This document shows, piece by piece, positions 1,992-47,280 of a stretch of 52,977 bases of DNA. The translations under genes and the position numbers were made by a program. Every line of letters begins with the position of its first letter. Within the stretch, counting starts at the first letter, position 1. The notes beneath the pieces were generated by a model. The model was not told the DNA's origin. It was given only the letters and a program-made list of their open reading frames with translations, and searched no databases. Source of the stretch: a virus (Duplodnaviria > Caudoviricetes); the IMG/VR virus record IMGVR_UViG_3300020438_000057, positions 1-52,977 of that record; one strand, 5' to 3'.

Positions 1992-2044
1992 CGAATCATA
2001 ATATAATATATCTAATATAACATAATAAAGTAGTATTTGTCAAG
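1992..2044 (-). promoter_or_regulatory. sigma70-type promoter for gene 32 with downstream TGATTCG
   Basis: TTGACA-N18-TATATT with TG extension; TGATTCG at 1998..1992. Confidence 0.65.
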
Positions 2045-2249
2045 TCCCTAATTTAAATTTATCTTTAGGGCGATTATAACTATAGTTATGCACGGAAGCA
2101 TTTACATTTGCTTGATGCGACATATACTCACCATATTTAGTTCTCCATTCTAACTCACTTTCTAAGTTCTTAATTCGATCTTTCATAGTCTCAACTTGCT
2201 CACGTAACTCTCTAAGTTCTCCTACGTATTTCTCTACTTCATGATTCAT
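2040..2249 (-). CDS. hypothetical coiled-coil protein
   Basis: ATGA overlap with gene 59; in operon. Confidence 0.7.
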   Translation of the reverse strand: MNHEVEKYVGELRELREQVETMKDRIKNLESELEWRTKYGEYMSHQANVNASVHNYSYNRPKDKFKLGT

Positions 2250-2842
2250 TTGAAAGCCTCCAATATAGTTTGTTTACATTTATTTTTGTCTACATTGACG
2301 TAACTATACATGAATGGAGTGTATTTTTTAAGTATAAAAAGAAAATCGTTAAGCATAGTGTTTTCTTGTTTACTCCAAACACTACTATAGTTAATCAAAT
2401 TATCTAATACTACCAGAGTATTTATATTGAGTTTCTCTCTTAGATATAGCTTAAACGCTAGTGGGTGTACTTCACCATCAGCCTGAGTGCTGAATAGAGC
2501 GTCAAACTGTGAGTGATAATCTCTAAGAGTGTATATATCTTCTTTGAATTGATAGTTAAACGACTCTATATTTTTTTGTAACTTCTTATGATTCATCATC
2601 GCACGGCCTTGTGACATTCCCAAGATATATTCTTCATCGTGAATAAAATTAGCAACAAGATATTGTACAAACTTTTCTTTGTCGTAGATACGTGCTAACT
2701 TTTCAAACTGATAATTATCTCTACGTGTGCGAAATTTATCTTCATTCACTTTTATCTTACCATTATATTTGAAGTAGTCGTAATCTGATTTAAAATGATT
2801 ACGTACTGCTAGATAAGATGCATATGCTTGAAGTCCGTTCAT
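2246..2842 (-). CDS. 59: helicase loader gp59
   Basis: YLAVRNHFKSDYDYFKYNGK...RRDNYQFEKLA; T4 order 33-59-32. Confidence 0.92.
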   Translation of the reverse strand: MNGLQAYASYLAVRNHFKSDYDYFKYNGKIKVNEDKFRTRRDNYQFEKLARIYDKEKFVQYLVANFIHDEEYILGMSQGRAMMNHKKLQKNIESFNYQFKEDIYTLRDYHSQFDALFSTQADGEVHPLAFKLYLREKLNINTLVVLDNLINYSSVWSKQENTMLNDFLFILKKYTPFMYSYVNVDKNKCKQTILEAFK

Positions 2843-3069
2843 ATAGGTAATTTAGGTGATTTAGGGATTGATAGAAAATTTAAATCGATAGCTTCAGCTT
2901 CTAATTTAGTCTTGATAACTCCGTTTACTAACTTAGCCGCTACTTCAACTTCCATTTCATTTGTTTCACAGTACCATACTATAGCGTCCATATAATTAAT
3001 TCTTTTATCTATAACTATTTCTTCTATTGTTTTAGAAAACTTACTTACGTTCATCACCTCTAAAGCCAT
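2839..3069 (-). CDS. 33: late transcription coactivator gp33
   Basis: FSKTIEEIV...YMDAIVWYCE...KLEAEAIDLNFL; synteny. Confidence 0.9.
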   Translation of the reverse strand: MALEVMNVSKFSKTIEEIVIDKRINYMDAIVWYCETNEMEVEVAAKLVNGVIKTKLEAEAIDLNFLSIPKSPKLPI

Positions 3070-3680
3070 TATATTCTGTCCTTGTGCATTTGTATTGAAT
3101 TGAATGATATTGAAATACGATCAGTATCTGATAAATTTTGTTCGACTTCATGTCCTCTGTTACTAGGAAATAAAATTAGTCTTCCTTCAACAGGCTCATA
3201 ATATACAGAACTCCATTGATGAAGATGTTCTCTATGTTCATTATCGTATATGGGTTTATGATGCTGATCAGGCACATTTAAAAATTTTATTCTTCCACAA
3301 TTTTCAGGACTCTGTACATAATACACACCACTCCATAGTGCATTAGGGTGTGTGTGAAAAGTATTGTATGCATGTTTTGGTGATACATTTGCCCACATAC
3401 TTTCTACAGTTAGAGGCCAATCAGAATTATAACCTTCTTCTATTGATAAACTCTTTTGAGCATCATTAATAGTATTCGTTATTTTGCTAAACTCTTCTCT
3501 AAAATGCATAGTTATAGTACTATGCCAACCTTGTTTATTAGAGCGTCCTACACCATCTTTATCTTCTTCTTTCCATTTGTATATATCACTAATCAATTCA
3601 CGATTCAATTCTTTTGAATTTTCTATATCAAAATAAAAGAAAGGAATAGAAAACCAAAATTCCCTTTGTATTTCAGACAT
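3069..3680 (-). CDS. 2OG-Fe(II) oxygenase (TIGR02466-like)
   Basis: WANV...HTHPNALWSGVYYV...LILFPSNRGHEV...RISISFN. Confidence 0.88.
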   Translation of the reverse strand: MSEIQREFWFSIPFFYFDIENSKELNRELISDIYKWKEEDKDGVGRSNKQGWHSTITMHFREEFSKITNTINDAQKSLSIEEGYNSDWPLTVESMWANVSPKHAYNTFHTHPNALWSGVYYVQSPENCGRIKFLNVPDQHHKPIYDNEHREHLHQWSSVYYEPVEGRLILFPSNRGHEVEQNLSDTDRISISFNSIQMHKDRI

Positions 3681-4121
3681 TCACTTTTCCCATCTATAAA
3701 AAATATGCTTTTCTATTCTTGTTGTTCTAGTTTTAGTTCTAGCCCATCCAGGCTTTACATACGTTGCATGATAGTGTGTAGCACCTTCTGTGACATCTAT
3801 GTTTATTCTATTGTATAAAACAAGATATGCATATCTTTGTGCTTTCTTCCATGCTTTTTCATTTCTTGGTACATCGTCTTTTCCGTCACAGTACCAACTA
3901 AATTGACAACGATGTCTGACTGGATATTGTTTATTTGGATCTTCCCAAGAAGGGCGATGAGGCCCTTGCTTGACTACTTCGCAAACTGAGTTGGGATATC
4001 TACTATCTGCAACTCTGTTCATAACTACTTGTGCTGTAGCAATCTGTCCTATCATTGACTGATTCTTTGCTTCATGATAAGTATTGAGTGCTAAACAAAT
4101 AAATGCTGTTTCTAATATCAT
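3681..4121 (-). CDS. cell wall hydrolase, SleB/Hydrolase_2 family
   Basis: CLALNTYHEAKN, VVMNRV...PNSVCEVVKQ, CQFSWYCDG, GATHYHATYVKPGW, HIFYR. Confidence 0.92.
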   Translation of the reverse strand: MILETAFICLALNTYHEAKNQSMIGQIATAQVVMNRVADSRYPNSVCEVVKQGPHRPSWEDPNKQYPVRHRCQFSWYCDGKDDVPRNEKAWKKAQRYAYLVLYNRINIDVTEGATHYHATYVKPGWARTKTRTTRIEKHIFYRWEK

Positions 4122-4157
4122 TCTTATACTCTATATGATTGTTGTTTATTTGTCAAG
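4121..4157 (-). promoter_or_regulatory. sigma70-type promoter, probably leaderless transcript of the SleB-like gene
   Basis: TTGACA-N17-TAGAGT-N6-ATG, no SD. Confidence 0.5.
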
Positions 4158-4158
4158 T

Positions 4159-4635
4159 CTATTTTTTAAACTTGTCGTTCATAGATTCCAGTACACTATC
4201 AATATTAGGTTCTTGTCCGTTGGGATCATATTTACATTGATATTCATTAGGACATTGGCCCTCTACTACCAATGTGTAAGTATCGTTAGCACCTTTATAG
4301 AGACAAACTTGATCACCATTCTTAGCAGTTCTTCTCTTATATCTTCTGCATGTGATATACTTGGGATCTTCACGTTTGCCTAATCTCTTCTCTTGCTCCC
4401 ATGTCCAATCACTAAACTTCTTCATGTAACATGTGAAGCACTGTATTATGTTAGGCGTTTTATTCTCATTATTAAATCTATCACTCCAAGCATAATTTGG
4501 AATGAGAAATGCTAACAATAAAATTATTTTGATTGAAAGTATTAACGAAAGCCTGCGAATAGATGACTTGTATTGAAAACGAACCATGCGAACCAACCTA
4601 GTAATGCAACTATAACTCCAATACCTACAGTGCAA
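4159..4635 (-). CDS. hypothetical Cys-rich exported protein (true start probably downstream of the listed one)
   Basis: Hydrophobic signal-like stretch then six Cys; follows 4542..5036. Confidence 0.6.
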   Translation of the reverse strand: MHCRYWSYSCITRLVRMVRFQYKSSIRRLSLILSIKIILLLAFLIPNYAWSDRFNNENKTPNIIQCFTCYMKKFSDWTWEQEKRLGKREDPKYITCRRYKRRTAKNGDQVCLYKGANDTYTLVVEGQCPNEYQCKYDPNGQEPNIDSVLESMNDKFKK

Positions 4636-5036
4636 ATTATTATATTTAAAATCTTTTCTCTTTGTTTCTCTCTAGCATAAACCATCTCTTGACGTTCTTT
4701 GCGAATCTTACCTTGCATTCGAATCAGTTCGTCCCATGCAGATGCTCCATGTGTAAACATGATGTATTGCTTGAGTTCGTATTCCATCTCCTCTGCTTTT
4801 TTCTTGGCGGCAAAGGCGTTCATTGCTTCTTCTTCTATAGATGAACCATTGAAAACTTTTTTATAGAATGGTGGATTCTTTGCATTCTTCTCTGCTTGAT
4901 TAACATCAGAAATAGCACCCATCCATCTACCAATATCGCCGTACATAGACTCGACATCTTTACCGAGTTGTATACCTTTCTTAATTGCTGAGAATGCAGT
5001 GCCTGCAATGGCCATTGCTGATACTGGATCTATCAT
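4542..5036 (-). CDS. hypothetical membrane protein, late-expressed
   Basis: MIDPVSAMAIAGTAFSAIKKG..., C-terminal TM helix; TATAAATA upstream. Confidence 0.75.
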   Translation of the reverse strand: MIDPVSAMAIAGTAFSAIKKGIQLGKDVESMYGDIGRWMGAISDVNQAEKNAKNPPFYKKVFNGSSIEEEAMNAFAAKKKAEEMEYELKQYIMFTHGASAWDELIRMQGKIRKERQEMVYAREKQREKILNIIICTVGIGVIVALLGWFAWFVFNTSHLFAGFR

Positions 5037-5121
5037 TACTGTTACCTATGACTAATTTAATTGATTATAATGAAACAATCTTAAATGTCACAATACGTAA
5101 TAATATAATACAATCTAGTAG

Positions 5122-5129
5122 TATTTATA
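5122..5129 (-). promoter_or_regulatory. T4-type late promoter
   Basis: TATAAATA on minus strand in intergenic region. Confidence 0.75.
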
Positions 5130-5165
5130 AAAAAAAAGAGCATCAGTGGTAACTGACACTCTTTT
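5129..5165 (-). terminator. Rho-independent terminator of the ncRNA locus
   Basis: AAGAGTGTCAG-TTACCA-CTGATGCTCTT followed by T-run. Confidence 0.85.
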
Positions 5166-5169
5166 CATA

Positions 5170-5390
5170 TTTAGTGTGGGAGGGACTGGCTTATACCCTC
5201 AACTAACACAACAAGATAAGCATATCTTTTTTAGTGTTAGAACTTACTTCCGTCATGTGGTGTTGACGATGTGATCTTGTATGACTAGCCCTTATTTCTA
5301 AGTATTCATCTTTCAAAACCTGGGTACCACCCCTAAGTAATCAAGTTCACTCCTCTTGTCGGTAGAGTTCTTCCTTGCACCACGTTTTTT
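5170..5390 (-). ncRNA. unidentified structured RNA downstream of tmRNA
   Basis: No ORF; at least five hairpins plus long-range pairings GTGGTG/CACCAC and GAACTT/AAGTTC; bounded by a hairpin (5385-5406) and a terminator. Confidence 0.6.
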
Positions 5391-5414
5391 CTCCGTCGAG
5401 AAAAAATCTGTAAT

Positions 5415-5750
5415 TCTGTGAGAGTGTTTCTGTTCCCAAGTACACTCTCTAAACTCGGTGCGATTAAGCCGCTAGTGCATAATCCACAGGTGCAATGTCA
5501 TCGTTTGCATTTAGTTTAATGTTCTCCACTAACCTACTACCTACCTGTCGATCCTATTTCGCCCCCATCAAGAATACTTGTTGATACGCCACTATCAAAA
5601 ATCTCTAAAGTATCTTACTACTCATGTCACAATTAAACGCAGACGCAGAGTTTGTGCTATGAAGGCGTAGTACTGAGCAAGTATTCTTGGTGGAGGCGAT
5701 GGGTACCGCCCCCATGTCCAGTCTAGTTTCATTTAGTCTCAACGAACTCT
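5415..5750 (-). ncRNA. ssrA: two-piece (circularly permuted) tmRNA, alphaproteobacterial type
   Basis: Acceptor piece ends ATGGG-GGCGGTA-CCCAT-CGCCTCCACCA at 5688; coding piece starts GGGGGCGAAATAGGATCGAC at 5566; G3:U70 Ala determinant; tag frame 5508..5464 = ANDDIAPVDYALAA*. Confidence 0.95.
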
Positions 5751-5751
5751 T

Positions 5752-5783
5752 TATTTATAGCATATTGATTCGTGATTCGTCAA
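5752..5783 (-). promoter_or_regulatory. composite sigma70/late promoter for tmRNA locus with tandem TGATTCG
   Basis: TTGACG (5783..5778)-N18-TATAAATA (5759..5752); TGATTCG twice at 5766-5779. Confidence 0.75.
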
Positions 5784-5794
5784 GTCTTTTTTGA

Positions 5795-6172
5795 TTATTT
5801 TTGTGGAGTAAATATCTCCATTCCCCAACCATTACCTATGATACAGGCCCAATCAGCACTTATAAACTCTACTAAACTCCATGTTCCAGTTTCTTTGTTT
5901 AAACCGAATGCTATTGTAGTCTTCATCAATTCACCATTCTCACGTACTGAAACATTGCTCCAAGTCATGATAGGTTGTTCTTTCCATTCTTTTGTAAGTG
6001 TGTGTACAATAAAATCTGGATGCTGACATACAACAGGCTTCATTGCATTTGCTATCTCATCTTTTTCAAACATCTTGTGTAATTTTTTCAAGTCGGGCTC
6101 ATGTTCTCCCCATGACATACTACCACAACTAACATAAAACACAAACACTAATAAACTAAGATATTTTATCAT
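5795..6172 (-). CDS. hypothetical exported protein
   Basis: N-terminal hydrophobic signal; overlaps exonuclease stop. Confidence 0.7.
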   Translation of the reverse strand: MIKYLSLLVFVFYVSCGSMSWGEHEPDLKKLHKMFEKDEIANAMKPVVCQHPDFIVHTLTKEWKEQPIMTWSNVSVRENGELMKTTIAFGLNKETGTWSLVEFISADWACIIGNGWGMEIFTPQK

Positions 6173-6824
6173 GATACTCTCCGTATAACTTTATCTTTTT
6201 TTGTGTAGATAGTATCCAATTGTCTCTCTTTTCTATAAATACTTGAGGACTCTCACCATCTACTGCTATGACTATTACAACTTGATCGATTGGTGTTTTT
6301 GTTCGTTCTTCATACATAACACAATAGGCAGAACCTTGTTGAAAATAATTCGTAATATATTCTTTCTTTTTAAGTTTTCTGGAAGTCTTAAAATCGATGA
6401 CGGAAAGCCTATTATTCCACTCAGCGATACAATCTACCCGTCCAGCGACTCTTAAATAATCTGAATAAAGGGTAGCTTCTTGAACTCTAACATTATTTAT
6501 ATTCTCGGAGAGTATGCCTTTTATAGTGCTGAAAGTTTCTTTGTCAGATGGCATGAACTTCTTTTCATCAAGTTCATTGTTGATAAAGTCTTCGCACATC
6601 TGATGTACTTTAGTACCTCGGCGTGATGCTTGAGTAGATATACGATTGGCCTCTTTTTCACCAACTCGTTGTCTCCACTCATAAATTGCTTTCTTATTGA
6701 AATGTCCTAATACTGTCGTTATAGACGGATACTTCTCACCACTAGGTGTAACATAGTATCTTTTACCATCTACAGTTTGAGTTTTGATTTCAGGTATGTC
6801 AATTCCTAGATGAGTAAACGTCAA
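6156..6824 (-). CDS. PD-(D/E)XK exonuclease (T4-like marine phage exonuclease)
   Basis: YPSITTVL, RRGTKVHQMCE, AGRVDCIAE...IDFKTS, YFQQGSAY. Confidence 0.88.
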   Translation of the reverse strand: MTFTHLGIDIPEIKTQTVDGKRYYVTPSGEKYPSITTVLGHFNKKAIYEWRQRVGEKEANRISTQASRRGTKVHQMCEDFINNELDEKKFMPSDKETFSTIKGILSENINNVRVQEATLYSDYLRVAGRVDCIAEWNNRLSVIDFKTSRKLKKKEYITNYFQQGSAYCVMYEERTKTPIDQVVIVIAVDGESPQVFIEKRDNWILSTQKKIKLYGEYHDKIS

Positions 6825-7561
6825 CTCAGTCCAAGATCGAGTTTCGAAATAATATATTCTTTCACCAAATCACTCCTTACGATATCATGTTTATCAAATT
6901 CTATAAAATCAAATGACTTCATTCTTTTAATTACTTTCATAAATTCTAATACGCCGTCACGTTCATCTTTAAATCTAAAATCACTCTGTCTAAAATCACC
7001 ACAAAATACTATTTTACAATTATCACCTAATCGTGTGATTATACTATCTAACTCGTGGTATGTCATGTTTTGACATTCATCTACTATAACAACTGCATCG
7101 TTGATTGTCAAGCCTCTTATAAACGATGTAGTTGTAAAGTGTACTTGCTCACGTCCTTTGAGTATTTCGTAAGCATCACCTCTCTGAAACAATTCTGTAA
7201 AGATTGCATAGTAAGGTGCTTCATACACTTTTGATTTTTCTCTTTGATTGCCAGGGAGAAATCCCATGTCTCTTGTTGGTACTACACTTCTTATAATATG
7301 TAAACTACGTGTGTCGTTATAATTACTCAATACTTCTTGTGTTGCTAGATACAATGCGATAAATGTTTTACCTGTTCCTGCTACACCATGACACATTATA
7401 TTTTTGCCACTATAATATGAATTAAATACTCTCTCTTGTGTTTTCGTCATGGGTTCTACTTCTTTTACTCTTAAACCCGTATTTACTCTTTTAAGCTTTC
7501 TCTTTTGTTTATTCGTTAATGGTACAATATTGTCTTGAAGAAATGAGAGATTGTTGGACAT
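6821..7561 (-). CDS. phoH: PhoH-like ATPase
   Basis: GVAGTGKTFIA, MGFLPG, FIRGLT, IVDECQN, CGDFRQSD, DIVRSDLVK. Confidence 0.95.
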   Translation of the reverse strand: MSNNLSFLQDNIVPLTNKQKRKLKRVNTGLRVKEVEPMTKTQERVFNSYYSGKNIMCHGVAGTGKTFIALYLATQEVLSNYNDTRSLHIIRSVVPTRDMGFLPGNQREKSKVYEAPYYAIFTELFQRGDAYEILKGREQVHFTTTSFIRGLTINDAVVIVDECQNMTYHELDSIITRLGDNCKIVFCGDFRQSDFRFKDERDGVLEFMKVIKRMKSFDFIEFDKHDIVRSDLVKEYIISKLDLGLS

Positions 7562-7573
7562 GGATACTCCTTG

Positions 7574-14439: not shown

Positions 14440-14448
14440 GACTCAAGT

Positions 14449-16107: not shown

Positions 16108-16153
16108 CGAATCACTTACACTATTATAATAGCAGGTTGACAAATTAAGTCAA
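16108..16153 (-). promoter_or_regulatory. early promoter repeat
   Basis: TTGACT-N13-TGCTATTATAATAGTGTAAGTGATTCG. Confidence 0.85.
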
Positions 16154-16445: not shown

Positions 16446-16492
16446 CGAATCATCTTATACTATTATAGTATCAGGATGTGAGAATATGTCAA
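16446..16492 (-). promoter_or_regulatory. early promoter repeat
   Basis: TTGACA-N13-TGATACTATAATAGTATAAGATGATTCG. Confidence 0.8.
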
Positions 16493-17093: not shown

Positions 17094-18150
17094 TAGCTAC
17101 AGGTTGTGATTTTCGTAATTCTTTCAGGCCATTAAGCATACCAGTCCACTGATTTGCCCTTATGTCCCAGTTATAACAATTATCTGCCCACTGTTTAGCG
17201 AAATGAAGCTTAGATAACATATCTTCAGAATTATGATTGTCGATTGCACCTTTTAGAAAATTTGCAAAAACATTCGCATGAAATTGTAAGTTTTCGTTCC
17301 AGTGATACATTGTAGCTAAACCACCAGTTGTTTCAGGAAGTGCTCCATAGTTAGGACATACTACTTGACAACCAGCCGACATTGCTTCAATAGCGGCAAT
17401 ACATGATGTTTCTTGCCAAATACTAGGATATGCAAAGATGTGTGATTTTGCTAAAGCTTCTCTCACTACTGCATTTGGTTTAAAACCATGATAAGTCATA
17501 CCTTCATGTTTTTTAATCTCATCAAAGATTTCTTGAAATGGTTCATCTCTCTTTGGCCAACCATAAGCTTCAAATGAAGAATATACGTCAAAATGTATTT
17601 TATCTTTGTAGCCGTTTTCCCACAAAGCTTTAATTCCAGCTACTGCAATATTTAATCCTCTGTGAGGTGTAGTATGATAAATTATACGAATAACATTTTT
17701 ATCTTTGTTCCAAGTACCATTTGTATTTGTTGATAACAAAATAGGTTCTATGGCATTTTTCAGAATAAATGATTCGCTCCAGTTTATACCATACATCATA
17801 TTAAACTGTTGCCACTGCCAATCTGATACAAAAACTAAACGAGAAAATCTCTTTCTTAGTTCCGCATCTTTTAAATGAGCATTTTCTGGATCACTTGCTA
17901 AATCATGCAACCAAAGAATATTTTCTTTTTCTTGAGAAATAGTACGAACTCTAGATTTAATAATATTAAATTCGTCTAATAAATCTTTTGGTAATCTCTC
18001 AGTAAGTGCATTACTCATGAGTTCAGTACCACCATATGATTCGTAATATGTACCATCGTCTTTCATTTGGCCTTTACTGCCATCTGCTATTTGAGTTTTC
18101 AATGATATCTCATCTGGGTGTTCTTCTTTAATTGCTTCTGCTTCAGCCAT
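17083..18150 (-). CDS. glycosyltransferase, GT-B (GT4/Glycos_transf_1-like)
   Basis: GGTEL, LWLHD, FVSDWQ, YHTTPHRGL, FAYPSIWQETSCIAAIEAMSAG. Confidence 0.9.
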   Translation of the reverse strand: MAEAEAIKEEHPDEISLKTQIADGSKGQMKDDGTYYESYGGTELMSNALTERLPKDLLDEFNIIKSRVRTISQEKENILWLHDLASDPENAHLKDAELRKRFSRLVFVSDWQWQQFNMMYGINWSESFILKNAIEPILLSTNTNGTWNKDKNVIRIIYHTTPHRGLNIAVAGIKALWENGYKDKIHFDVYSSFEAYGWPKRDEPFQEIFDEIKKHEGMTYHGFKPNAVVREALAKSHIFAYPSIWQETSCIAAIEAMSAGCQVVCPNYGALPETTGGLATMYHWNENLQFHANVFANFLKGAIDNHNSEDMLSKLHFAKQWADNCYNWDIRANQWTGMLNGLKELRKSQPVANDG

Positions 18151-18991: not shown

Positions 18992-19086
18992 CTCCTTATA
19001 ATGTTATGCCCAACTTAAACGATAGCATAATCAATAGAATTATTATTAATAATAATATAACATTATTGAGTGTCATCTGTCAAGAC

Positions 19087-19401
19087 TCAATCTTCAATAG
19101 GATCTTCCCAACCAAATGATCCCATTTTACTTTTGAAGTTCTTCAACTTCTCATCATATTTTTTATTTGTCGCATCGTTCATGTTAGCAAGATGATAACC
19201 AGCATCCTTATCAACTTCTCTAATCTCTAGAAAAATCTTTTCGTTTGCACTAAGTTGTTTGGATCTTTGCATAAAAATAAATGCTCTATATAATTGATAT
19301 CTTACGACATCACATACTTTACATGTGTTATCGTATACAGTTGTTACAACTGCCATAGCCGTATTCCTTTCTGAAAAAATGTTAAGAGAATGAGTTTTCA
19401 C
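19087..19401 (-). CDS. hypothetical protein (start probably at MAVVTT)
   Basis: AAAGGAA RBS before internal ATG. Confidence 0.6.
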   Translation of the reverse strand: MKTHSLNIFSERNTAMAVVTTVYDNTCKVCDVVRYQLYRAFIFMQRSKQLSANEKIFLEIREVDKDAGYHLANMNDATNKKYDEKLKNFKSKMGSFGWEDPIED

Positions 19402-41344: not shown

Positions 41345-42125
41345 TACACATATCCTTCACAAAATTTTCAAACTCTATTATATCTAGTTGCACATCAGCA
41401 TCACTAGGTGCATCAAACGGATCATTATGAACTTCAGCAAACACTATATCTGCACCTGCGATTAATCCACATTTCATCATCATGTTTGCATATTGACTAT
41501 CACCGCCACTAGTTTTACCATCACGTCCTGGATACTGACAACTATGAGTAGCATCAATACAGACTTTATCATTATTTGCTTTCATAATAGGTATTGAGCG
41601 AAAGTCAACAACTAAGTCATTGTAACCAAATGTAGTTCCTCTCTCAGTTAATATTATTCTTTCGCAACCAAAGCTTTCTAGTTTTGTTGACACGTTTAAC
41701 ATATCAACTGGTGATAGAAACTGTCCTTTCTTCACATTGACTGGACGGCCACTATCAGCGGCCGCTTTCAGTAAATCAGTTTGTCTACACAAGAATGCTG
41801 GTATCTGTATGACATTGACATTGTCCATATTTTTTACTTGCCATGTTTCATGTACATCAGAACATATTTCTATACCAAACTCTTTTTTTATTTTAGCAAA
41901 ATCTTCTAGTGCATTTTCCGCACCTCTAAAGCTATCAGCACTTGTTCTATTCGCTTTATCAAAACTAGTCTTGTATAAAAGATTTACTTTATTATCTACA
42001 CATATAGGTAACATTTTATCTAGCATAAAACATGCATGATCATATCCCTCATAAGCACAAGGGCCAGCAATCAAGTGTCCATTCCACTTATCGTTACCTA
42101 TTCTGCCATACCATCTACTCATCAC
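41328..42125 (-). CDS. kdsA: 3-deoxy-D-manno-octulosonate 8-phosphate synthase
   Basis: LIAGPC, SFDKANRTS, QIPAFLCRQTDLL, VKKGQFL, ERGTTFGYNDLVVD, DATHS. Confidence 0.95.
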   Translation of the reverse strand: MMSRWYGRIGNDKWNGHLIAGPCAYEGYDHACFMLDKMLPICVDNKVNLLYKTSFDKANRTSADSFRGAENALEDFAKIKKEFGIEICSDVHETWQVKNMDNVNVIQIPAFLCRQTDLLKAAADSGRPVNVKKGQFLSPVDMLNVSTKLESFGCERIILTERGTTFGYNDLVVDFRSIPIMKANNDKVCIDATHSCQYPGRDGKTSGGDSQYANMMMKCGLIAGADIVFAEVHNDPFDAPSDADVQLDIIEFENFVKDMCNVRLS

Positions 42126-42471
42126 TTTTTATTTTTCCTACTGTTTCTCTTATTATATCATTGTGATCAAATGTGGCCCAATATAATTCAAATGCTACAC
42201 CACTTTCGATACACTCAAATTGATGATATAATCCTGGTTTTACTTTTGTGTAGTCTCCAGGTTTTAGTATTGTTTCATCGATTAAATCATAGTCTTTCTG
42301 CCACACTGATACCTTCATGATACCAGACTCAACGAAGAAACCATTCCATTTATATTCATGTAAGTGCTTAGAGCAAATACCACCTTTTTTCATTTCTATT
42401 CTATGAAACTCTAAAGCACAATTAGCTTCAACTAATTCAGTTGTTCCCCATATCTTTCCTGCTTTCATCAT
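42115..42471 (-). CDS. cupin-fold protein (sugar isomerase-like)
   Basis: KIWG, CSKHLHEYKWNGFFVESG, VKPGLYHQF. Confidence 0.8.
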   Translation of the reverse strand: MMKAGKIWGTTELVEANCALEFHRIEMKKGGICSKHLHEYKWNGFFVESGIMKVSVWQKDYDLIDETILKPGDYTKVKPGLYHQFECIESGVAFELYWATFDHNDIIRETVGKIKSDE

Positions 42472-42622
42472 TTATCCTTTCAATACAGATATAATTAATA
42501 TTAGGAGTATACATCATTCTACCCTTTGATGCAAGTTCACATTGCCGTTTCCAATTAAATTCTTTTACTTGAATTGTTTTATCAGCTACAACCGTAGCTA
42601 GTATGAATACTATTTCTGCCAT
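42437..42622 (-). CDS. hypothetical small protein
   Basis: Operon overlap. Confidence 0.55.
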   Translation of the reverse strand: MAEIVFILATVVADKTIQVKEFNWKRQCELASKGRMMYTPNINYICIERINDESRKDMGNN

Positions 42623-43836
42623 CCTTTTTTAATCTTATCAGAGAAATTGGCCTTACTAAATTCCATTCTATCTACTAGCTTTACTGCATTTTTACCAAGT
42701 TTATCTATAGCAACATAGCCTTCTTGTCCAGTTACTTTGAAACCATCTTCTGTTGATAAAAATGTTTTAAGTTGTGCGGTTTTATTCATTTGCTTAATTA
42801 ACATTAACTTAGCATCCACGAAATGATTCATTAATGTTAGTATATTTGATAACTGACTTTTATTTGTCTTAGAAAAAAATCTCATTACATCTTGTTTTCT
42901 AAGGTTAACGGCATCTTTACCCTTTTCAGATTTTCTTTTATCTGTTTCGCCTTTAAAGAAATTATGAAAATAATCAATCATTTCATCTACAGTTTTTCTA
43001 ACATTAGTAATCTTTTTACCAGCACGAACTTTTGTATTTAAAAATGTTTTCATTCTCATTAGTAGTTCATCATTTTCAGATATACCATTTAAAGTAGAAG
43101 GATTTAGTTTTTGAAATACTTTACCAGCATCAGATAATATTTTAGTAACTTGATCAGTTTCTTTTTTAGTCATCGTTGCAGAACCAGATGTATCTTGATA
43201 AAGTGCATCAACACTCCATACACCTTGAGCCTTTACATCATCAGCAATCTTGACACCAAACTCGGCATTCATATTTTCGAAATTTTTACCTTTGTATCGT
43301 GTATGCCACACTATACCAATTTGAGAAGACATAACTTCATTCACTAATGGTGAACTATAAGGAATTGCATATACAATTGTATTTGGGTGAAACGTCAAAT
43401 ATTTACCATCTTCAAATCTTCTAGAAGATATATCTGCTTTAGAGAATAAAAAATCACCTTGAATGACATCTTTGATATTAGCATTTTGAAGTAAAGTGAA
43501 AGCAGTAGCTAACTTGTTTGCTAAATCACCAGAAGTGTCGGCATGAACTTCTTCTATAGATTTATATACTTTTGGATTTTTATTAAAGATACCTTTTTTA
43601 GCAACAAAAAATTTACTATCAGATGGATCAGTACCACAAAATATAGCAGGAGCTCCATCCCATTTAACAGATATATTTACACTTGATGTAGAACTACCTG
43701 CAAGCATATCTCTTATTGCTCTTAAAAAATTCAATGACTCTCTTGCACCATTTACACCACCATTGAGTATATTATCTTCAATATGCTCCATGTGTGTATT
43801 CTTAGCTTCTGCTAAAAATGAAGTAAAACCTTTCAT
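42610..43836 (-). CDS. conserved T4-like late protein (DUF6267-like) with capsid-targeting-like N-terminus
   Basis: MKGFTSFLAE|AKNTHMEHIED, VKWDGAPA, QGDFLF, EGYV, KLVDRMEFS; late promoter upstream. Confidence 0.75.
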   Translation of the reverse strand: MKGFTSFLAEAKNTHMEHIEDNILNGGVNGARESLNFLRAIRDMLAGSSTSSVNISVKWDGAPAIFCGTDPSDSKFFVAKKGIFNKNPKVYKSIEEVHADTSGDLANKLATAFTLLQNANIKDVIQGDFLFSKADISSRRFEDGKYLTFHPNTIVYAIPYSSPLVNEVMSSQIGIVWHTRYKGKNFENMNAEFGVKIADDVKAQGVWSVDALYQDTSGSATMTKKETDQVTKILSDAGKVFQKLNPSTLNGISENDELLMRMKTFLNTKVRAGKKITNVRKTVDEMIDYFHNFFKGETDKRKSEKGKDAVNLRKQDVMRFFSKTNKSQLSNILTLMNHFVDAKLMLIKQMNKTAQLKTFLSTEDGFKVTGQEGYVAIDKLGKNAVKLVDRMEFSKANFSDKIKKGWQK

Positions 43837-43863
43837 AACTAAACCTTTCGTTTATTAGACTAC

Positions 43864-43871
43864 TATTTATA
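43864..43871 (-). promoter_or_regulatory. T4-type late promoter
   Basis: TATAAATA upstream of 42610..43836. Confidence 0.75.
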
Positions 43872-44082
43872 ATGACTTCTTCTGGCCAATTTTAACGTAC
43901 TCTTCAGCAACTTTTCTTACTTCATCATAACTTCTTCTTGTTAAGAAAGCAGTTCTTAAAGGTTTACCATACTTATCATCTAGTATTTCTGCATGATACA
44001 TACTAGGTACTGCTGGCACTTCTTTACCACCCAGTTGTTTTGATAGTTGATATCTACCAGCATATATTTTATATTCTCTCAT
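43867..44082 (-). CDS. hypothetical protein
   Basis: Operon overlap. Confidence 0.65.
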   Translation of the reverse strand: MREYKIYAGRYQLSKQLGGKEVPAVPSMYHAEILDDKYGKPLRTAFLTRRSYDEVRKVAEEYVKIGQKKSL

Positions 44083-44372
44083 TATCGCCTCATGTTTGCT
44101 TGATCAATAGCATCATTGCTATCTTTTCTAATTGGTACTGCATTAGATTTATGTAGTGTTCCTATACCAAGCAACTCATCGCCAGTATAAGTACCATACT
44201 TTTTTGCCAAACCATTACCGATTTTATTTGTTGTTGATGCAGTTTTCTTAACAGATAAATCTGGAAAATCATATCTAAATTTCTTTTTTGGTTTGGTATA
44301 ACCTGTCTTTACTAACAAGTCATTTAATAATTTCTTTTCACGTTCTATTGCTTTTTTATTTCTTACAATCAT
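44082..44372 (-). CDS. conserved hypothetical protein
   Basis: YTGDELLGIGTLHKSNAVPI...MRR. Confidence 0.75.
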   Translation of the reverse strand: MIVRNKKAIEREKKLLNDLLVKTGYTKPKKKFRYDFPDLSVKKTASTTNKIGNGLAKKYGTYTGDELLGIGTLHKSNAVPIRKDSNDAIDQANMRR

Positions 44373-44383
44373 ATTATACCTAT

Positions 44384-44423
44384 AAAAAAGGGAGGGATAT
44401 TGATCAATGTCAGCGTCCCTCCC
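44384..44423 (-). terminator. Rho-independent terminator
   Basis: GGGAGGGA...TCCCTCCC stem followed by T6. Confidence 0.85.
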
Positions 44424-44480
44424 ATAACCGAGCTAGTGAGAAAGTGAGAGAGAGGTTGCTCGGTTTACCTAACTCATATG
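44384..44480 (-). ncRNA. candidate two-hairpin sRNA with CU-rich anti-RBS loop
   Basis: AACCGAGC-[AACCTCTCTCTCACTTTCTCACTA]-GCTCGGTT then terminator hairpin. Confidence 0.55.
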
Positions 44481-44486
44481 TACTTA

Positions 44487-44858
44487 TTACTTCAAATATA
44501 AAGGGCCCGTCCATCTTATATGATAACCACCATCGAGAACATTTCCTCGAGCGGCATTTCTAGCAGGTGCATTATACCCTGCGGCCATCAAGATGTCGCC
44601 TTTCTTGAACTTTTTATCAGTGTCAGTAGCGACAACGAAACCCCAACATTGGTGACGATTTAATATTTTGGCATACTTAGAGCCTTTCTTAACAACGAAA
44701 CCATCATTAAACTCAGTAATCATTCTCTTGTTAACGTCTGACAATTCTTTGGCACCACCTCGGGTAGTCCAATCAACATAATCGCTTTTAGCGATATCAA
44801 GCATAGACTCAATACCTTTGTCTAAATCTAAAGCTTTATTTTCTACTGCTAATGTCAT
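44487..44858 (-). CDS. conserved marine-phage early protein
   Basis: GSKYAKI...WGFVV...FKKGDILMAAGYNAPARNAARGNV...WTGPLYL. Confidence 0.8.
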   Translation of the reverse strand: MTLAVENKALDLDKGIESMLDIAKSDYVDWTTRGGAKELSDVNKRMITEFNDGFVVKKGSKYAKILNRHQCWGFVVATDTDKKFKKGDILMAAGYNAPARNAARGNVLDGGYHIRWTGPLYLK

Positions 44859-44879
44859 AATTTCTCTCTCTCTTTTTAT

Positions 44880-44921
44880 TGACTATGCTATTAATATAGC
44901 ATATGATTCGCTTTTTGTCAA
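44880..44921 (-). promoter_or_regulatory. early promoter with TGATTCG in spacer
   Basis: TTGACA-AAAAGCGAATCATA-TGCTATATTAATAG. Confidence 0.75.
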
Positions 44922-45145
44922 CCATTAAAATAAAAATAATTAATAAAACTACAAGATATTCTTCAAGCATATTTTTATTTACAATTACAAATTCACCTAG
45001 AGGTGTTGCAACTACAATACATGCAACAAAAAAAGATACATATGCTATGGCGATATATCTCACTTTTACCAGTCTCCATATATGCAAAATCTAACAGTGA
45101 TAAAAAGTGCAATAAACATAATAACTAATAAAATTGTATCTAACA

Positions 45146-45340
45146 TTACTTTTGCTCGTTTCGTATCACAGTTACAGCGGCCCCACCAACTGCACCAGCT
45201 TCACAATTCTTAAAGAACAATTCACCAGCTAAACACCCAAGAACTGAGTTTCCTACCAACTCTTCACCATTTTTTGTCAAGTATGTAGTTTGACAACCTG
45301 AGATGAACAGTACACCTAAAATTAATAATACTTTTTTCAT
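45146..45340 (-). CDS. small lipoprotein with glycine-zipper-like helix
   Basis: Lipobox ISGC; GAVGGAA. Confidence 0.65.
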   Translation of the reverse strand: MKKVLLILGVLFISGCQTTYLTKNGEELVGNSVLGCLAGELFFKNCEAGAVGGAAVTVIRNEQK

Positions 45341-45582
45341 TTAACACTCCATTGGTTTGGTTTACCAGAAACTTGTGATAGTGATAAATCACCATGTGTT
45401 TCTTGCAAGACTTTTAATTCTTTTAGTACGGCTCTTCTGATGATATCAGATTTAGATAACATCTCCATATCAGCATACTTATCTAGTTTAGCATTCAAAG
45501 ATTTAGGAACTCTAAAAGCTACGATTTGATTTTCTATCTTACTTGGTTTCATTTTCTTATCAACTTTCCAATCAGTTCCCAA
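45337..45582 (-). CDS. ribbon-helix-helix (CopG-like) DNA-binding protein
   Basis: IVAFRVPKSLNAKLDKYADMEMLSKSDIIRRAV. Confidence 0.75.
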   Translation of the reverse strand: MGTDWKVDKKMKPSKIENQIVAFRVPKSLNAKLDKYADMEMLSKSDIIRRAVLKELKVLQETHGDLSLSQVSGKPNQWSVK

Positions 45583-45806
45583 TCGTAAGTTTTTGATAAT
45601 TCATTTGCCTCTAAAGAAGGCATACCATCTTTAATCAACTTCTTTTTCTTTTTACGATCTAACTCAAAAGACATTTCGAAACCTGTTGCTTCTTCAAGAT
45701 ACCCAATCGCATCGTGAATGTCTTCAAATTCTTTAACACCAATATTGTTATTTAGATGTGGTTTTGCTATAAACATATTATTCTCCTCAGCCTCTGTAAA
45801 AAACAT
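45549..45806 (-). CDS. hypothetical early protein
   Basis: GAGGAG before MFIAKP. Confidence 0.65.
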   Translation of the reverse strand: MFFTEAEENNMFIAKPHLNNNIGVKEFEDIHDAIGYLEEATGFEMSFELDRKKKKKLIKDGMPSLEANELSKTYDWELIGKLIRK

Positions 45807-45972
45807 CTGGCGCTTTTATGTCCCAATCAATTACTTCTTTGTCCTGCAATTGGGCGTTAAGTTCAAACTGCAAAGTTTTTGCTAAGTCAACATTTTTCTT
45901 TATTATCTCTTTAGCAAATTCTTTCATGCCATCTTCGTTTTCAAAAAAACGATATGCCTCATAATCTATCAT
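45787..45972 (-). CDS. hypothetical early protein
   Basis: AGAGAGGTT RBS before ATG at 45972 (MIDYEAY). Confidence 0.65.
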   Translation of the reverse strand: MIDYEAYRFFENEDGMKEFAKEIIKKNVDLAKTLQFELNAQLQDKEVIDWDIKAPDVFYRG

Positions 45973-45982
45973 ATTAACCTCT

Positions 45983-46186
45983 CTATATGTAGTTGCTCCA
46001 AAAGTCATTCCAATAATCTTCTACTTGGCCGAAGACATCATCTTCATCTAAGTGAGGAACTTCTTTCTTCCATAGTTTCATTGCTTCAGTAGTTGCTTCA
46101 ACAATTGTATCAGACTCTTTGATAATATCTACGACACTATCCCAGAAATTTTCTTCACAATTTAAAATGTAACTTGACATTCCCAT
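45983..46186 (-). CDS. acidic hypothetical early protein
   Basis: First gene after early promoter; WNDFWSNY. Confidence 0.7.
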   Translation of the reverse strand: MGMSSYILNCEENFWDSVVDIIKESDTIVEATTEAMKLWKKEVPHLDEDDVFGQVEDYWNDFWSNYI

Positions 46187-46203
46187 TTTTTTAACCTCTC
46201 TTT

Positions 46204-46249
46204 CGAATCACTTACTCTATTATAATAGCAGGAATACAAAATTTGTCAA
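46204..46249 (-). promoter_or_regulatory. early promoter repeat
   Basis: TTGACA-N13-TGCTATTATAATAGAGTAAGTGATTCG. Confidence 0.85.
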
Positions 46250-46533
46250 CCCCCTAAAAACTTTTTTCTTACCATCTGAACAGTGTCTTTCACTATTGTT
46301 GGGTATACACCCAAATAAGTACCAGCCTCTAAACTATCTTTGCTTATTAGCTTCTTATGATGGTGATTTATTTTATCATAACTTTCTAATAGCATTTTTG
46401 CTACAACGTCAAAAGTAGCGTCCGTTGCTATTGGTTTATCTTCCTGATAGTAAGCATAAGACATCATTAGATATAATGGCACTGTCATGTTAACATCTTC
46501 TGTTATCTTAGCTTTTATCATGGTGTCTAACAT
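46246..46533 (-). CDS. stand-alone NAD+-dependent DNA ligase domain Ia-like protein
   Basis: YLMMSYAYYQEDKPIATDATFD resembles LigA YY..D.P.ISD.EYD. Confidence 0.7.
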   Translation of the reverse strand: MLDTMIKAKITEDVNMTVPLYLMMSYAYYQEDKPIATDATFDVVAKMLLESYDKINHHHKKLISKDSLEAGTYLGVYPTIVKDTVQMVRKKFLGG

Positions 46534-46907
46534 TATGCACCTACCTTTGTGTAAGGCTTACTCCATTTACCGATGTTAATATCGATGTAGTAAGCAGTGT
46601 GAAAGTAATCTGTCATGGCATCAGACTTATCGAACCATTTAGTTCCTTTCATTGCTTTGTGCAACTCTTTAAGAAACTTCTTGACAGTTCCTGTATAGAA
46701 GTTGTCAAGATGATAAGTATTGACTTGAATGTGGCCGTCATCGCCCTTTCGAAAATATTCTGTAAAATCTAGAATACCTTCAGTTACTGTCACAACAAGT
46801 GACATATGATGACGGATAGAAATAGAGCCTTTCATACCGAAATCTTTAAGCACCTTTTTGATAGCAGGTGCGAGTTCTTTTTTGTCTTCTTGTGAAATAT
46901 AAGCCAT
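46533..46907 (-). CDS. conserved hypothetical early protein
   Basis: MAYISQEDKKELAPAIK...WFDKSDAMTDYFHTAYYIDINIGKW. Confidence 0.75.
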   Translation of the reverse strand: MAYISQEDKKELAPAIKKVLKDFGMKGSISIRHHMSLVVTVTEGILDFTEYFRKGDDGHIQVNTYHLDNFYTGTVKKFLKELHKAMKGTKWFDKSDAMTDYFHTAYYIDINIGKWSKPYTKVGA

Positions 46908-46928
46908 ATTAACCTCTCTGTTTTATTT

Positions 46929-46974
46929 CGAATCACTTACACTATTATAATAGCATATCTAGAATTAAAGTCAA
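46929..46974 (-). promoter_or_regulatory. early promoter repeat
   Basis: TTGACT-N13-TGCTATTATAATAGTGTAAGTGATTCG. Confidence 0.85.
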
Positions 46975-47219
46975 GCGATTTCTTTTAATGCTTTTTTAAG
47001 AAATCTATTAACTTTTTTAACAATTCGTCTTGCACTCTCACGACATAAACCATAATCTTTACCAATACTATCAAATGTTTTTTTAGTATCATAAGTTTTT
47101 TCACCCCAAATTAAAAAGTCACGATAAGGATCACTTCTATACATATAAGGATTTCTATTGTGTATTTTAAGAAGTCTATCAATTAAATCTTTAGCAATAA
47201 TTGTTTTTTCTAAATTCAT
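46971..47219 (-). CDS. small protein with sigma70 region 4-like HTH
   Basis: KTFDSIGKDYGLCRESARRIVKKVNRFLK resembles TLEEVG..F.VTRERIRQIE.KAL.KL. Confidence 0.65.
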   Translation of the reverse strand: MNLEKTIIAKDLIDRLLKIHNRNPYMYRSDPYRDFLIWGEKTYDTKKTFDSIGKDYGLCRESARRIVKKVNRFLKKALKEIA

Positions 47220-47234
47220 ATTTTCTCTCTCTTT

Positions 47235-47280
47235 CGAATCACTTACACTATTATAATATCAGATTGAGCCTTAAAGTCAA
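47235..47280 (-). promoter_or_regulatory. early promoter repeat
   Basis: TTGACT-N13-TGATATTATAATAGTGTAAGTGATTCG. Confidence 0.85.

Follow-up and report, generated by a model that had tools for sequence, protein, structure and literature searches.

In Caulobacter crescentus, GcrA is a monomeric cofactor of sigma70, according to the accessible part of PMC9976885, and its best site is TGATTCG or, more broadly, YGAKTCK, as given in the available text of PMC4647560. The extended motif used in this study, YGAKTCG with the optimum TGATTCG and a GANTC core, was taken from that text and from the accessible part of PMC7987155, which reports no preference for the extended motif among the GcrA-activated promoters of Brevundimonas. 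The same part of PMC9976885 places GcrA boxes either in the promoter spacer, at -20 +/- 1 and -30 +/- 2, or between +5 and +30; the Caulobacter promoter PcsM carries GAATC at -22 to -18, and PmipZ carries TGAGTCG at +12. In phages, sites for the cell-cycle regulator CtrA have been described in promoter regions of phiCbK and vB_BsubS-Delta, and a GcrA-matrix scan of alphaproteobacterial phages gave no positional signal (PMC9437464).

Here we describe the promoters of a tailed phage in a window of 52,977 nucleotides, the whole of the stretch analysed (IMG/VR record IMGVR_UViG_3300020438_000057). We argue, with a confidence somewhat better than even, that the word TGATTCG is a DNA-level promoter module working as a GcrA box, the GcrA/CcrM reading being the best explanation of the data. 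The phage sites resemble the GcrA boxes of C. crescentus in their 7-mer optimum, their sigma70-type promoters, their occurrence as single sites suited to a monomer, and their spacer (approximately -20 and -30) and downstream (+5 to +30) position classes; their strand sense is that of PcsM and PmipZ. In contrast to the Caulobacter boxes, they lie on a lytic T4-like genome rather than a chromosome, their methylation and their binding by GcrA are predictions, and the candidate host is a low-GC organism, perhaps SAR11, whose CcrM homologue is probably specific for GAWTC rather than GANTC. The arrangement is comparable to that of the CtrA-site phages, in which sites of a host cell-cycle regulator likewise stand in promoter regions, although the regulator differs and the CtrA case has no methylation component. 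Phages are also connected with GcrA through the phiCbK-like Caulobacter phages, which encode homologues of it, whereas the window carries cis sites and no GcrA gene was found in it. As in T4-like phages, host sigma70 promoters with conservation beyond the hexamers precede clusters of small early genes; the early promoters of T4 itself have an extended consensus. To our knowledge, a methylation-reader box in early promoters has no counterpart in T4-like phages.

Results

TGATTCG is concentrated in non-coding DNA

The window holds 14 copies of TGATTCG on both strands, compared to 4.52 +/- 1.90 in dinucleotide-preserving shuffles, in which the maximum was 10 and none of 100 reached 14. The coding/non-coding split followed a hand-curated map of 101 genes, gene maps being crude longest-ORF maps. 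Non-coding DNA (2,790 bp, 5.3% of the window) contained nine of the 14 copies, a density of 3.23 per kb, while coding sequence had 0.10 per kb. An earlier, sequence-only reading had listed nine non-coding copies of TGATTCG/CGAATCA, all of which were recovered in place, and the intergenic-versus-coding count that it proposed identified a strongly intergenic word of the YGAKTCG type. By eye it had noticed two coding copies, at 4720 and 47744; there are in fact five, with additional ones at 17770, 18037 and 25944. The copy at 4720-4726 (minus strand) has no promoter context and is conserved in the relative G001. In an unbiased scan of 6,644 strand-collapsed 7-mers, TGATTCG/CGAATCA ranked first for intergenic enrichment, above the -10 words (binomial p 4.9e-9). 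The flanking bases were specific: all nine intergenic GATTC sites of the window are TGATTCG, and the 15 remaining flank pairs account for 60 GATTC sites, none of them intergenic (Fisher p 1.8e-8). GANTC as a whole was depleted in the window (120 observed versus 168.8 +/- 12.5 expected). Across the window and G001 the depletion was selective for GAWTC, with an observed/expected ratio of 0.71 versus 0.83-0.85 for GASTC. SAR11 showed the same pattern (GAWTC 0.38, GASTC 0.82), unlike Melnitz, a phage of OM43, which lacked this selectivity (1.00 versus 0.72).

The position and orientation of the word at early promoters

Promoters were called by a consensus scan (TTGACW-16/17/18-TATTAT/TATATT/TACTAT with an extended TG), which returned minus-strand sites at 2043-2014, 16153-16126, 16492-16465, 44921-44893, 46249-46222, 46974-46947 and 47280-47253. 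These promoters match the sigma70 consensus at 10-11 of 12 positions in addition to the extended TG; this is consensus evidence, and promoter-like sites overall were no commoner than in shuffles (20 versus 16.6 +/- 4.0, and 92 versus 82.6 +/- 11.1). Transcription starts were predicted by counting from the -10 hexamers, and all box positions depend on them. In the first of these promoters (TTGACA-18-TATATT with TG), which precedes gene 32 (Pfam gp32 match, 8e-43), TGATTCG lies in the leader at 1992-1998 on the minus strand, at predicted +10 to +16. It occupies predicted +7 to +13 of promoter 16492-16465 (16446-16452, minus strand), and predicted +6 to +12 of promoters 16153-16126, 46249-46222, 46974-46947 and 47280-47253 (minus-strand copies at 16108-16114, 46204-46210, 46929-46935 and 47235-47241, respectively). 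In promoter 44921-44893 the word is reversed, reading CGAATCA in the sense of transcription, and sits within the spacer from -24 to -18 (44904-44910, plus strand).

The tmRNA promoter provided the remaining two copies. The window encodes a permuted two-piece alpha-type tmRNA with the tag ANDDIAPVDYALAA (5419-5786, minus strand), supported by ARAGORN and by Rfam (alpha_tmRNA, 94.6 bits). Its promoter, TTGACG-18-TATAAA with TGC before the -10 (5754-5786, minus strand), was read by eye and stands outside the scan list, as the scan demands T at hexamer position 6. The spacer contains CGAATCA twice in tandem in the minus-strand sense of transcription (5766-5779, the word itself on the plus strand), with predicted centres at -22 and -29 counted from the -10 TATAAA at 5759-5754. 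Thus, the predicted centres over all promoters were +9 in four cases, +10 and +13 downstream, and -21, -22 and -29 in spacers. With these predicted starts the copies fall into the GcrA box classes, the -22 centre lying one base beyond -20 +/- 1; all nine non-coding copies are the exact TGATTCG, and on consensus grounds their promoters are of the sigma70 type.

The promoters fall into three architectures: that of the TATTAT-AATAGTGTAAG class, that of gene 32, and that of the two promoters whose spacer contains the word. TGATTCG is the sole element common to them and is a module used by three otherwise unlike promoter types. An internal contrast is provided by a motif-free promoter of the same class (TTGACT-16-TATTAT-AATAGT, 47642-47669, minus strand), which has an ATG directly 3' of it. 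Orientation followed position without exception: on the non-template strand of the window, G001 and L001-L036, all 11 spacer copies read CGAATCA, and all 48 copies from -4 onwards read TGATTCG (sequence-distinct regex matches, in which one promoter may score in more than one -10 register). The argument of the sequence-only reading that both orientations favour a DNA site was therefore strengthened, with reversed copies in the spacers and forward ones beyond the start. Conservation of the 11-base stretch that separates the -10 from the word, AATAGTGTAAG, equals that of TGATTCG, so that the constraint exceeds the 7-bp box, and the -10 region adjoining the word forms a 12-bp palindrome, CTATTATAATAG.

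Conservation among phage relatives

The window encodes T4-type replication proteins (gp32, a family B DNA polymerase, a RecA/UvsX-like protein and a DnaB-like helicase), as well as ribonucleotide reductase, ThyX and PhoH, and most of its small early genes have no known family. Judged by gene content, it fits a T4-like, pelagimyophage-type early region, with replication genes and small-gene clusters behind sigma70 promoters. The nearest named phages are Melnitz, matching 37 of 101 genes at a mean amino-acid identity of 45%, and the SAR11 phage HTVC008M, matching 30 of 101 at 43%. The window is about equally distant from both, and its proposed host is a candidate. Melnitz has 12 copies of TGATTCG, none at promoters; its host, OM43, is not an alphaproteobacterium, and this contrast was counted in favour of the GcrA reading. 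HTVC008M, the sole SAR11 myophage isolate searched, has no TGATTCG and almost no GANTC (a tenfold depletion), so the promoter device is not general among SAR11 phages. The available part of the pelagimyophage paper, which could not define middle or late promoters, contains no mention of TGATTCG.

In G001, which shares 84% amino-acid identity with the window, approximately 10 of 17 copies stand at orthologous promoters. Relatives keep the word despite divergence of their leaders and -35/-10 spacers. Among matches to TATAATAGTGTAAG with an upstream TTGAC, collected from sequences other than the window, 43 of 46 carried the full 7-mer, and the remaining three were in contigs judged unrelated. In RNA-library contigs, just a 32-base promoter block was common to different phage loci.

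GcrA and CcrM in the candidate host

A search for gcrA and ccrM, suggested by the sequence-only reading, was successful in the candidate host and negative in the phage window. Neither the window nor any of five related records (G001-G005) yielded a GcrA gene, and no CcrM-like methylase is encoded in the window, G001-G003 or G005; the sole methylase of G004 is short and unlike CcrM. Methylation would therefore rest on the host. The absence of both proteins from the host had been named as grounds for abandoning the idea; both are present in SAR11, the candidate host. The SAR11 genome G397, which matches the SAR11-441R probe exactly, encodes a full-length CcrM homologue (8e-142 versus 6PBD) and a GcrA matching the DNA-binding and sigma-binding domains of 7YE1, 5YIU and 5YIX, with all four methyl-pocket residues (R33, N34, I37 and G38) conserved. 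GcrA was found in 59 of 61 genomes of the SAR11 order. A CcrM homologue was identified in three SAR11-order genomes. The SAR11 CcrM and GcrA both score below the strict NCBIfam equivalog cut-offs (581.6 versus 830 bits for CcrM, 104.8 versus 280 bits for GcrA). According to published data, SAR11 GANTC is methylated (PMC9516812) and SAR11 CcrM homologues are GAWTC-specific (PMC8919816).

Judging from its distribution, TGATTCG behaves like a regulatory site in SAR11. Six of the 12 copies in G397 lie in non-coding DNA, which makes up 3.8% of the genome, and 12 of 35 GATTCG sites are intergenic, versus 21 of 461 GATTCH sites (p 2.8e-7). One G397 site and one phage promoter have a 14-base stretch and an 11-base distance from the -10 in common, and the SAR11 ccrM promoter contains two GANTC sites. 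In four of five genomes, two of them close kin, the spacer of the SAR11-type tmRNA promoter contains GAWTC, and the orthologous promoter of Melnitz has no GANTC. The closest relative of the window tmRNA is that of the OM43 phage Melnitz, so that an alpha-type tmRNA does not prove an alphaproteobacterial host (PMC9004378).

Discussion

Proposed function and competing explanations

We propose a low-GC marine alphaproteobacterium as the host of the phage, with SAR11 as the likeliest group; the CcrM-type enzyme of this host would methylate the GATTC adenine in phage DNA. Host GcrA, riding on the sigma70-RNA polymerase, would recognise methylated TGATTCG through its N-terminal domain and would aid polymerase engagement at eight of the approximately 12 sigma70-type early promoters in the window. 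The suggestion that phage promoters exploit GcrA and CcrM is consistent with the word, its positions and the SAR11 genes, while an alphaproteobacterial host, methylation of virion DNA and action of GcrA stand as proposals. We infer all four elements, i.e., the host, the methylation of phage DNA, the binding of GcrA and activation. Telling against the reading are the near-equal distances to Melnitz and HTVC008M, the absence of TGATTCG from HTVC008M, the equally conserved 11 bases beside the word, the NCBIfam scores of the SAR11 proteins, and the published results on Brevundimonas promoters and on alphaproteobacterial phages.

The word could instead be the operator of another sequence-specific DNA-binding protein, either an early regulator of the phage or a different factor of the host, and would then match the GcrA optimum by coincidence. 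The invariance of the full 7-mer, rather than of GANTC alone, among the TATAATAGTGTAAG matches agrees with this, as do the palindrome at the -10, which could itself be an operator, the tandem copies in the tmRNA promoter, and the lack of a known family for most small early genes. We nevertheless consider an unrelated operator unlikely: the sites are single and asymmetric, which suits a monomer such as GcrA better than a dimeric repressor, their predicted positions, upstream and downstream of the start, match those of GcrA boxes, and the promoters of the OM43 phage Melnitz lack the word. A purely phage factor would also be insufficient, given the intergenic enrichment of the word in the SAR11 chromosome. 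The same host bias is left unexplained if no factor is involved and TATTAT-AATAGTGTAAG-TGATTCG is simply a core promoter, together with its initial transcribed sequence, that has been optimised or has spread recently, comparable to the extended consensus of T4 early promoters, the other copies being due to chance. Conservation of the whole 25-30 bp block, and recurrence of the 32-base block as a unit between phage loci, are what such a promoter predicts. It accounts neither for the reversed copies in two spacers, nor for the different intervening sequence at gene 32, nor for the perfect link between orientation and position, and the freely diverged -35/-10 spacers argue against recent copying, making it quite improbable.

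The depletion of GANTC in the window, its tenfold depletion in HTVC008M and the depletion reported for half of the pelagiphages (PMC9516812) indicate selection on GANTC in these phage-host pairs, possibly for reasons other than GcrA. The word might accordingly be a CcrM methylation site that functions without GcrA, by a direct effect on melting, by self-marking or in a GANTC-directed defence. We regard this as decidedly improbable, since the T and G flanks are fixed although CcrM needs just GANTC or GAWTC, and neither defence nor self-marking predicts fixed promoter positions. A processing, stability or translation signal in the RNA leader would suit the six copies predicted at the extreme 5' end of short leaders, directly upstream of purine-rich ribosome-binding sites. 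However, three copies lie in spacers, in the opposite sense and upstream of transcription, which excludes a pure RNA element, and the predicted folding of the six leaders does not surpass that of shuffled sequences (z -0.44 to +1.40); a role in RNA is thus highly improbable.

Significance and possible epigenetic gating

If the GcrA reading is true, this would be the first phage with early promoters built round the box of a host methylation reader, and the host-regulator sites known from phage promoters would extend from the CtrA/LexA type to an epigenetic sigma70 cofactor. It would provide a handle on gene timing in T4-like phages of streamlined marine bacteria, and on the role of the conserved GcrA/CcrM pair in SAR11, where the word marks few intergenic sites. 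GcrA boxes in promoters would also predict an alphaproteobacterial host from sequence, and could tell apart the SAR11-type and the OM43-type phages within this group.

A further and rather unlikely extension is that early transcription in this abundant marine T4-like lineage is epigenetically gated. Jointly with such gating, only DNA methylated by the CcrM-type enzyme of the previous host would recruit GcrA-loaded polymerase, and replication would outrun methylation, so that progeny genomes would lose early-promoter activity. This loss would supply an early-to-late switch, which these phages apparently lack, having no MotA/AsiA-type middle system, and would tie the onset of infection to the methylation or cell-cycle state of the host. 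The complete removal of HGANTCD from HTVC008M would then reflect the opposite response to this host system.

Concentration of the TGATTCG word in non-coding DNA

All nine non-coding positions that the sequence-only reading had assigned to TGATTCG (reverse complement CGAATCA) were exact, and its two coding copies proved to be an undercount, with three more at 17770, 18037 and 25944. The total of 14 copies in the window compares with 4.5 ± 1.9 expected and was reached in none of 100 shuffles. The comparison of intergenic with coding DNA, based on a hand-curated map of 101 genes, placed 9 of the 14 copies in 2,790 non-coding bases, at 32 times the coding density, and thereby showed the word to be concentrated there. 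Among 6,644 7-mers of the window scanned with no prior, TGATTCG had the strongest intergenic enrichment (p = 4.9e-9), above the -10 words. The outer T and G matter, since intergenic GATTC in the window always occurs as TGATTCG and the 60 sites flanked by other bases all lie outside intergenic DNA (p = 1.8e-8). GANTC, the target of CcrM, is depleted in the window (120 observed versus 169 ± 12 expected), mainly through the loss of GAWTC (observed/expected 0.71) and less of GASTC (0.85).

The word is a module of unlike promoters

Approximately twelve sigma70-type promoters were predicted in non-coding window DNA, partly by eye and partly by a consensus scan; eight contain the word and four lack it. 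Five have the common layout TTGACW-N13-TGN-TAYTAT-AATAGTGTAAG-TGATTCG, with the word at predicted positions of about +6 to +12 (tool-called -10, spacer of 16, extended TG). The intervening sequence differs in the gene 32 promoter, where the word lies at predicted positions of about +10 to +16. The other two promoters hold it upstream of the predicted start with the sense reversed, at -24 to -18 in promoter 44921-44893 and as two tandem copies with predicted centres at -22 and -29 in the tmRNA promoter. Occurring in promoters of differing architecture and in both senses and positions, the word is a module common to unlike promoters.

The best-binding GcrA sequence is given in the accessible text of Haakonsen et al. 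(PMC4647560) as 'TGATTCG or, more broadly, YGAKTCK'. The available sections of Wu et al. (PMC9976885) describe GcrA as a monomer on sigma70 region 2, with boxes in the spacer at -20 ± 1 and -30 ± 2 or from +5 to +30, e.g., GAATC at -22 to -18 in PcsM and TGAGTCG at +12 in PmipZ. The phage sites share with the boxes described there the sequence, the position class (relative to predicted starts) and the strand sense.

Related phages and natural contrasts

The linear 52,977-bp contig (34% G+C, estimated to be approximately 29% complete) carries nearly all of its genes on the minus strand, among them those for gp32, a family B DNA polymerase, a RecA/UvsX-like protein, a DnaB-like helicase, ribonucleotide reductase, ThyX and PhoH. 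The closest named phages are Pelagibacter phage HTVC008M and Methylophilales (OM43) phage Melnitz, matched in our own gene map by 30 (mean 43% identity) and 37 (mean 45%) of the 101 genes, respectively. The 146.6-kb virus record G001 is matched by 85 of the 101 at 84%; read whole, it holds 17 copies of the word, and about 10 of these occupy promoters with an orthologue in the window, among them the gene 32 copy and the two tandem copies that precede the tmRNA.

A viral-contig scan in which the word was part of the query found the promoter block in 36 stretches (L001-L036) from approximately 30 records, where the -35/-10 spacer and the post-word leader vary freely and the -10, the next 11 bases and the word are constant. 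A second scan, made without the word and using the 14-base upstream half of the block, returned at least 112 stretches, mostly from unrelated viruses, with no new family members among the matches listed. The conservation of the word within the family is therefore partly ascertained, as the scan that yielded the 36 stretches required it and the word-free scan added none. On the non-template strand of the window, G001 and L001-L036, spacer copies read CGAATCA in 11 of 11 cases and downstream copies TGATTCG in 48 of 48, in a tally of sequence-distinct regex matches where one promoter can score in several -10 registers and where the downstream sense partly reflects the locus search, the spacer copies having turned up incidentally.

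Melnitz, isolated on OM43, has 12 copies of the word, none in promoter context, and its GAWTC is not depleted. The tmRNA promoters of Melnitz and the window are orthologues (the tags ANDNYVPVDYALAA and ANDDIAPVDYALAA are related), and the Melnitz one, TTGACA-17-TATAAA, contains no GANTC. In HTVC008M, which was isolated on a SAR11 strain, the word is absent and just 43 GANTC compare with 441 expected. The device is thus confined to one lineage and is not general to SAR11 phages, and its absence from HTVC008M leaves room for doubt about the host of the window phage. GANTC depletion has been published for about half of pelagiphages (PMC9516812, accessible text). The whole HTVC008M genome (L230-L237) contains zero HGANTCD, all 43 GANTC having a preceding G or a following C, while HGANTCD makes up 70-79% of the GANTC sites in the window, G001, Melnitz and the candidate SAR11 genome G397; this flank rule is not mentioned in the literature text examined.

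GcrA and CcrM in a candidate SAR11 host

The sequence-only reading had proposed looking for gcrA and ccrM in host and phage; both were found in G397 and neither in the window. Phage-encoded GcrA or CcrM was rejected, as no GcrA gene was found in the related records G001-G005 either, and their sole methylase, a short G004 protein with an SPPDY motif, resembles beta-class enzymes only generically and is not CcrM-like. This 209-residue N6/N4 methylase (L037, 228-857) adjoins MazG and UvsX and has no counterpart in the window or G001. A GcrA homologue is encoded by phiCbK-like phages according to the accessible part of PMC9437464.

SAR11 was reached through a degenerate tmRNA pattern, which led to alphaproteobacterial loci and a class-wide GcrA search, with GcrA present in 261 of 401 genomes of the class (a tally that takes in the unpublished G048 and G248). 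G397 (28.6% G+C) is among the small low-GC genomes. It matches exactly what we take to be the sequence of the SAR11-441R 16S probe, which two other such genomes, G123 and G281, match with two mismatches. The G397 CcrM homologue (356 residues) gives a full-length alignment with Caulobacter CcrM (8e-142), with LKNEL replacing the LGGDL pocket. The available part of Hiraoka et al. (PMC8919816) suggests for it a specificity of GAWTC rather than GANTC, which would be compatible with the GATTC core of the word. The 163-residue G397 GcrA has a DNA-binding domain that aligns gap-free to that of Caulobacter, with W3, W15, R33, N34, I37 and G38 conserved, and its C-terminal part matches the sigma-binding domain; R33, N34, I37 and G38 read the methyl groups in the account accessible from PMC5887438. 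In score, both G397 proteins fall short of the strict NCBIfam equivalog cut-offs.

The portion seen of Brilli 2010 (PMC2877005) implies that Pelagibacter is without CcrM and GcrA. This is contradicted by direct searches in the order of G397, where GcrA is present in 59 of 61 sampled genomes. CcrM in Pelagibacter/SAR11 is supported by the accessible text of Gonzalez et al. 2014 and Adhikari et al. 2021 (PMC3973325, PMC7987155), and passages of Seong et al. 2022 (PMC9516812) report methylation at most of the GANTC in a Pelagibacter genome.

The word was analysed in G397 contig C1 (707,660 bp, 3.8% non-coding by a crude ORF map). Six of its 12 TGATTCG copies are non-coding, and two others lie within approximately 20 bases of an ORF start. 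TGATTCG has the top intergenic fraction among 16 flank variants, and 12 of 35 GATTCG are intergenic, compared with 21 of 461 GATTCH (odds ratio 10.9, p = 2.8e-7). The low total (12 versus a mononucleotide expectation of 67) was rejected as evidence of depletion because it follows from the rarity of TCG/CG (maximal-order Markov expectation 10.6), and the intergenic bias alone was used. GAWTC is selectively depleted in G397 (0.38 versus 0.82 for GASTC), and the ccrM promoter has two GANTC sites. The site before a TPR-protein gene has 14 bases (AAGTGATTCGTTAA) in common with phage promoter 16153-16126 and lies 11 bases from a TATATT hexamer, the same distance as in that promoter. The tmRNA-promoter spacer holds GAWTC at about -22, -26 or -30 in four of five small low-GC alphaproteobacterial genomes, two of the five being close kin. 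An inverted pair, CGAATCA-TTT-TGATTCG, sits at C1 570822-570838, with a TTGACA promoter on one side and a lysine-rich ORF of 29 codons (MPKKRKK...) on the other.

The window has an alpha-type two-piece tmRNA (Rfam 94.6 bits), with a manA RNA motif (5171-5403, 61.8 bits) directly downstream. Host assignment by tmRNA was rejected: five tmRNAs of low-GC alphaproteobacteria, three or more of them from the SAR11 order, are just about 48-54% identical to that of the window, a DNA search of five small genomes gave one 33-base match, and among phage tmRNAs that of Melnitz is nearest. The intervening segment of approximately 135 nt between the two pieces is absent from the five aligned genes. When window and G001 proteins were compared with C1 by tblastn, just common metabolic genes (27-48% identity) and one MazG-like protein (65% over 117 residues, C1 versus a G001 protein) were found, a weak indication of host. 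The MazG-like likeness may reflect gene exchange between SAR11 and this phage lineage. The gene for this MazG-like protein and that for ThyX flank the tmRNA gene at C1 209150-210633.

Weighing the readings

On balance, we lean towards the word working through GcrA and CcrM at phage promoters. It is identical to the best GcrA site in the literature consulted, both position classes (at predicted starts) and the strand sense agree with that literature, and it is modular across unlike promoters and kept in relatives. The candidate host has reader and writer and the same intergenic bias, and Melnitz, the one relative with a non-alphaproteobacterial host, has no promoter copies. Against this stand the window tmRNA, closest to that of Melnitz, with an alpha-type tmRNA carried by an OM43 phage too (PMC9004378, accessible part); a constraint broader than the 7-mer; and, in the texts available, a Brevundimonas GcrA with no preference for the extended motif (PMC7987155) and a GcrA-matrix scan of alphaproteobacterial phages without signal (PMC9437464). 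The hijack of host epigenetic activation first proposed is partly supported, by sequence, predicted position and sense, its alphaproteobacterial host being in doubt, and we would back it, if only just.

That the word is the site of another DNA-binding factor seems unlikely; a promoter cassette acting without any factor is less likely again, and a role of methylation without GcrA slightly less so than that. An RNA element was rejected as highly improbable, since the six leaders that hold downstream copies do not fold better than shuffled sequences and three copies lie upstream of predicted starts, outside the predicted transcripts. As an extension of the GcrA/CcrM reading, the attractive idea of an early-gene shut-off by progeny copies that lack methylation is hypothetical and rather doubtful. 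Our literature search turned up no paper describing GcrA boxes in phage promoters, and the GcrA literature found on SAR11/Pelagibacter included none on phage promoters. Host-regulator sites in phage promoters are already known, such as CtrA sites in alphaproteobacterial phages (PMC9437464, in the part seen); the putative GcrA boxes would be new. If the reading is true, a known type of regulation gains a new form, in a marine phage group that is abundant and whose gene timing is poorly understood.

Further features of the promoters

Promoter 47669-47642 belongs to the class of the five and lacks the word, with an ATG directly after AATAGT. The ATG in this region (47636-47669) is just 6 bases past the TATTAT hexamer, a layout kept in the related loci L014 and L026, which suggests a leaderless message. 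Two other word-less promoters have TTGAGTCTTGACA in common (14440-14444 and 19084-19088), which sets GAGTC immediately before the -35 (as TGAGTCT, fitting the broad YGAKTCK); its centre near -39 falls outside the GcrA positions in the accessible literature. The -10 region CTATTATAATAG (46222-46233 and four sister promoters) is a perfect 12-bp palindrome, replaced in promoter 16492-16465 by ATACTATAATAGTAT, with two 7-base arms about one central base; the palindrome might be bound by a dimeric protein as its operator. Fourteen DNA runs contain 98-99% of the words of the window contig. Contigs from four RNA-library runs span parts of 44000-48000 and carry no start, strand or level information. 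In two RNA-library runs, contigs match the 32-base promoter block at 46202-46233 alone and run on into other sequence on either side, one flank resembling the L007 and L015 promoters. The 32-base block recurs among co-occurring related phages.
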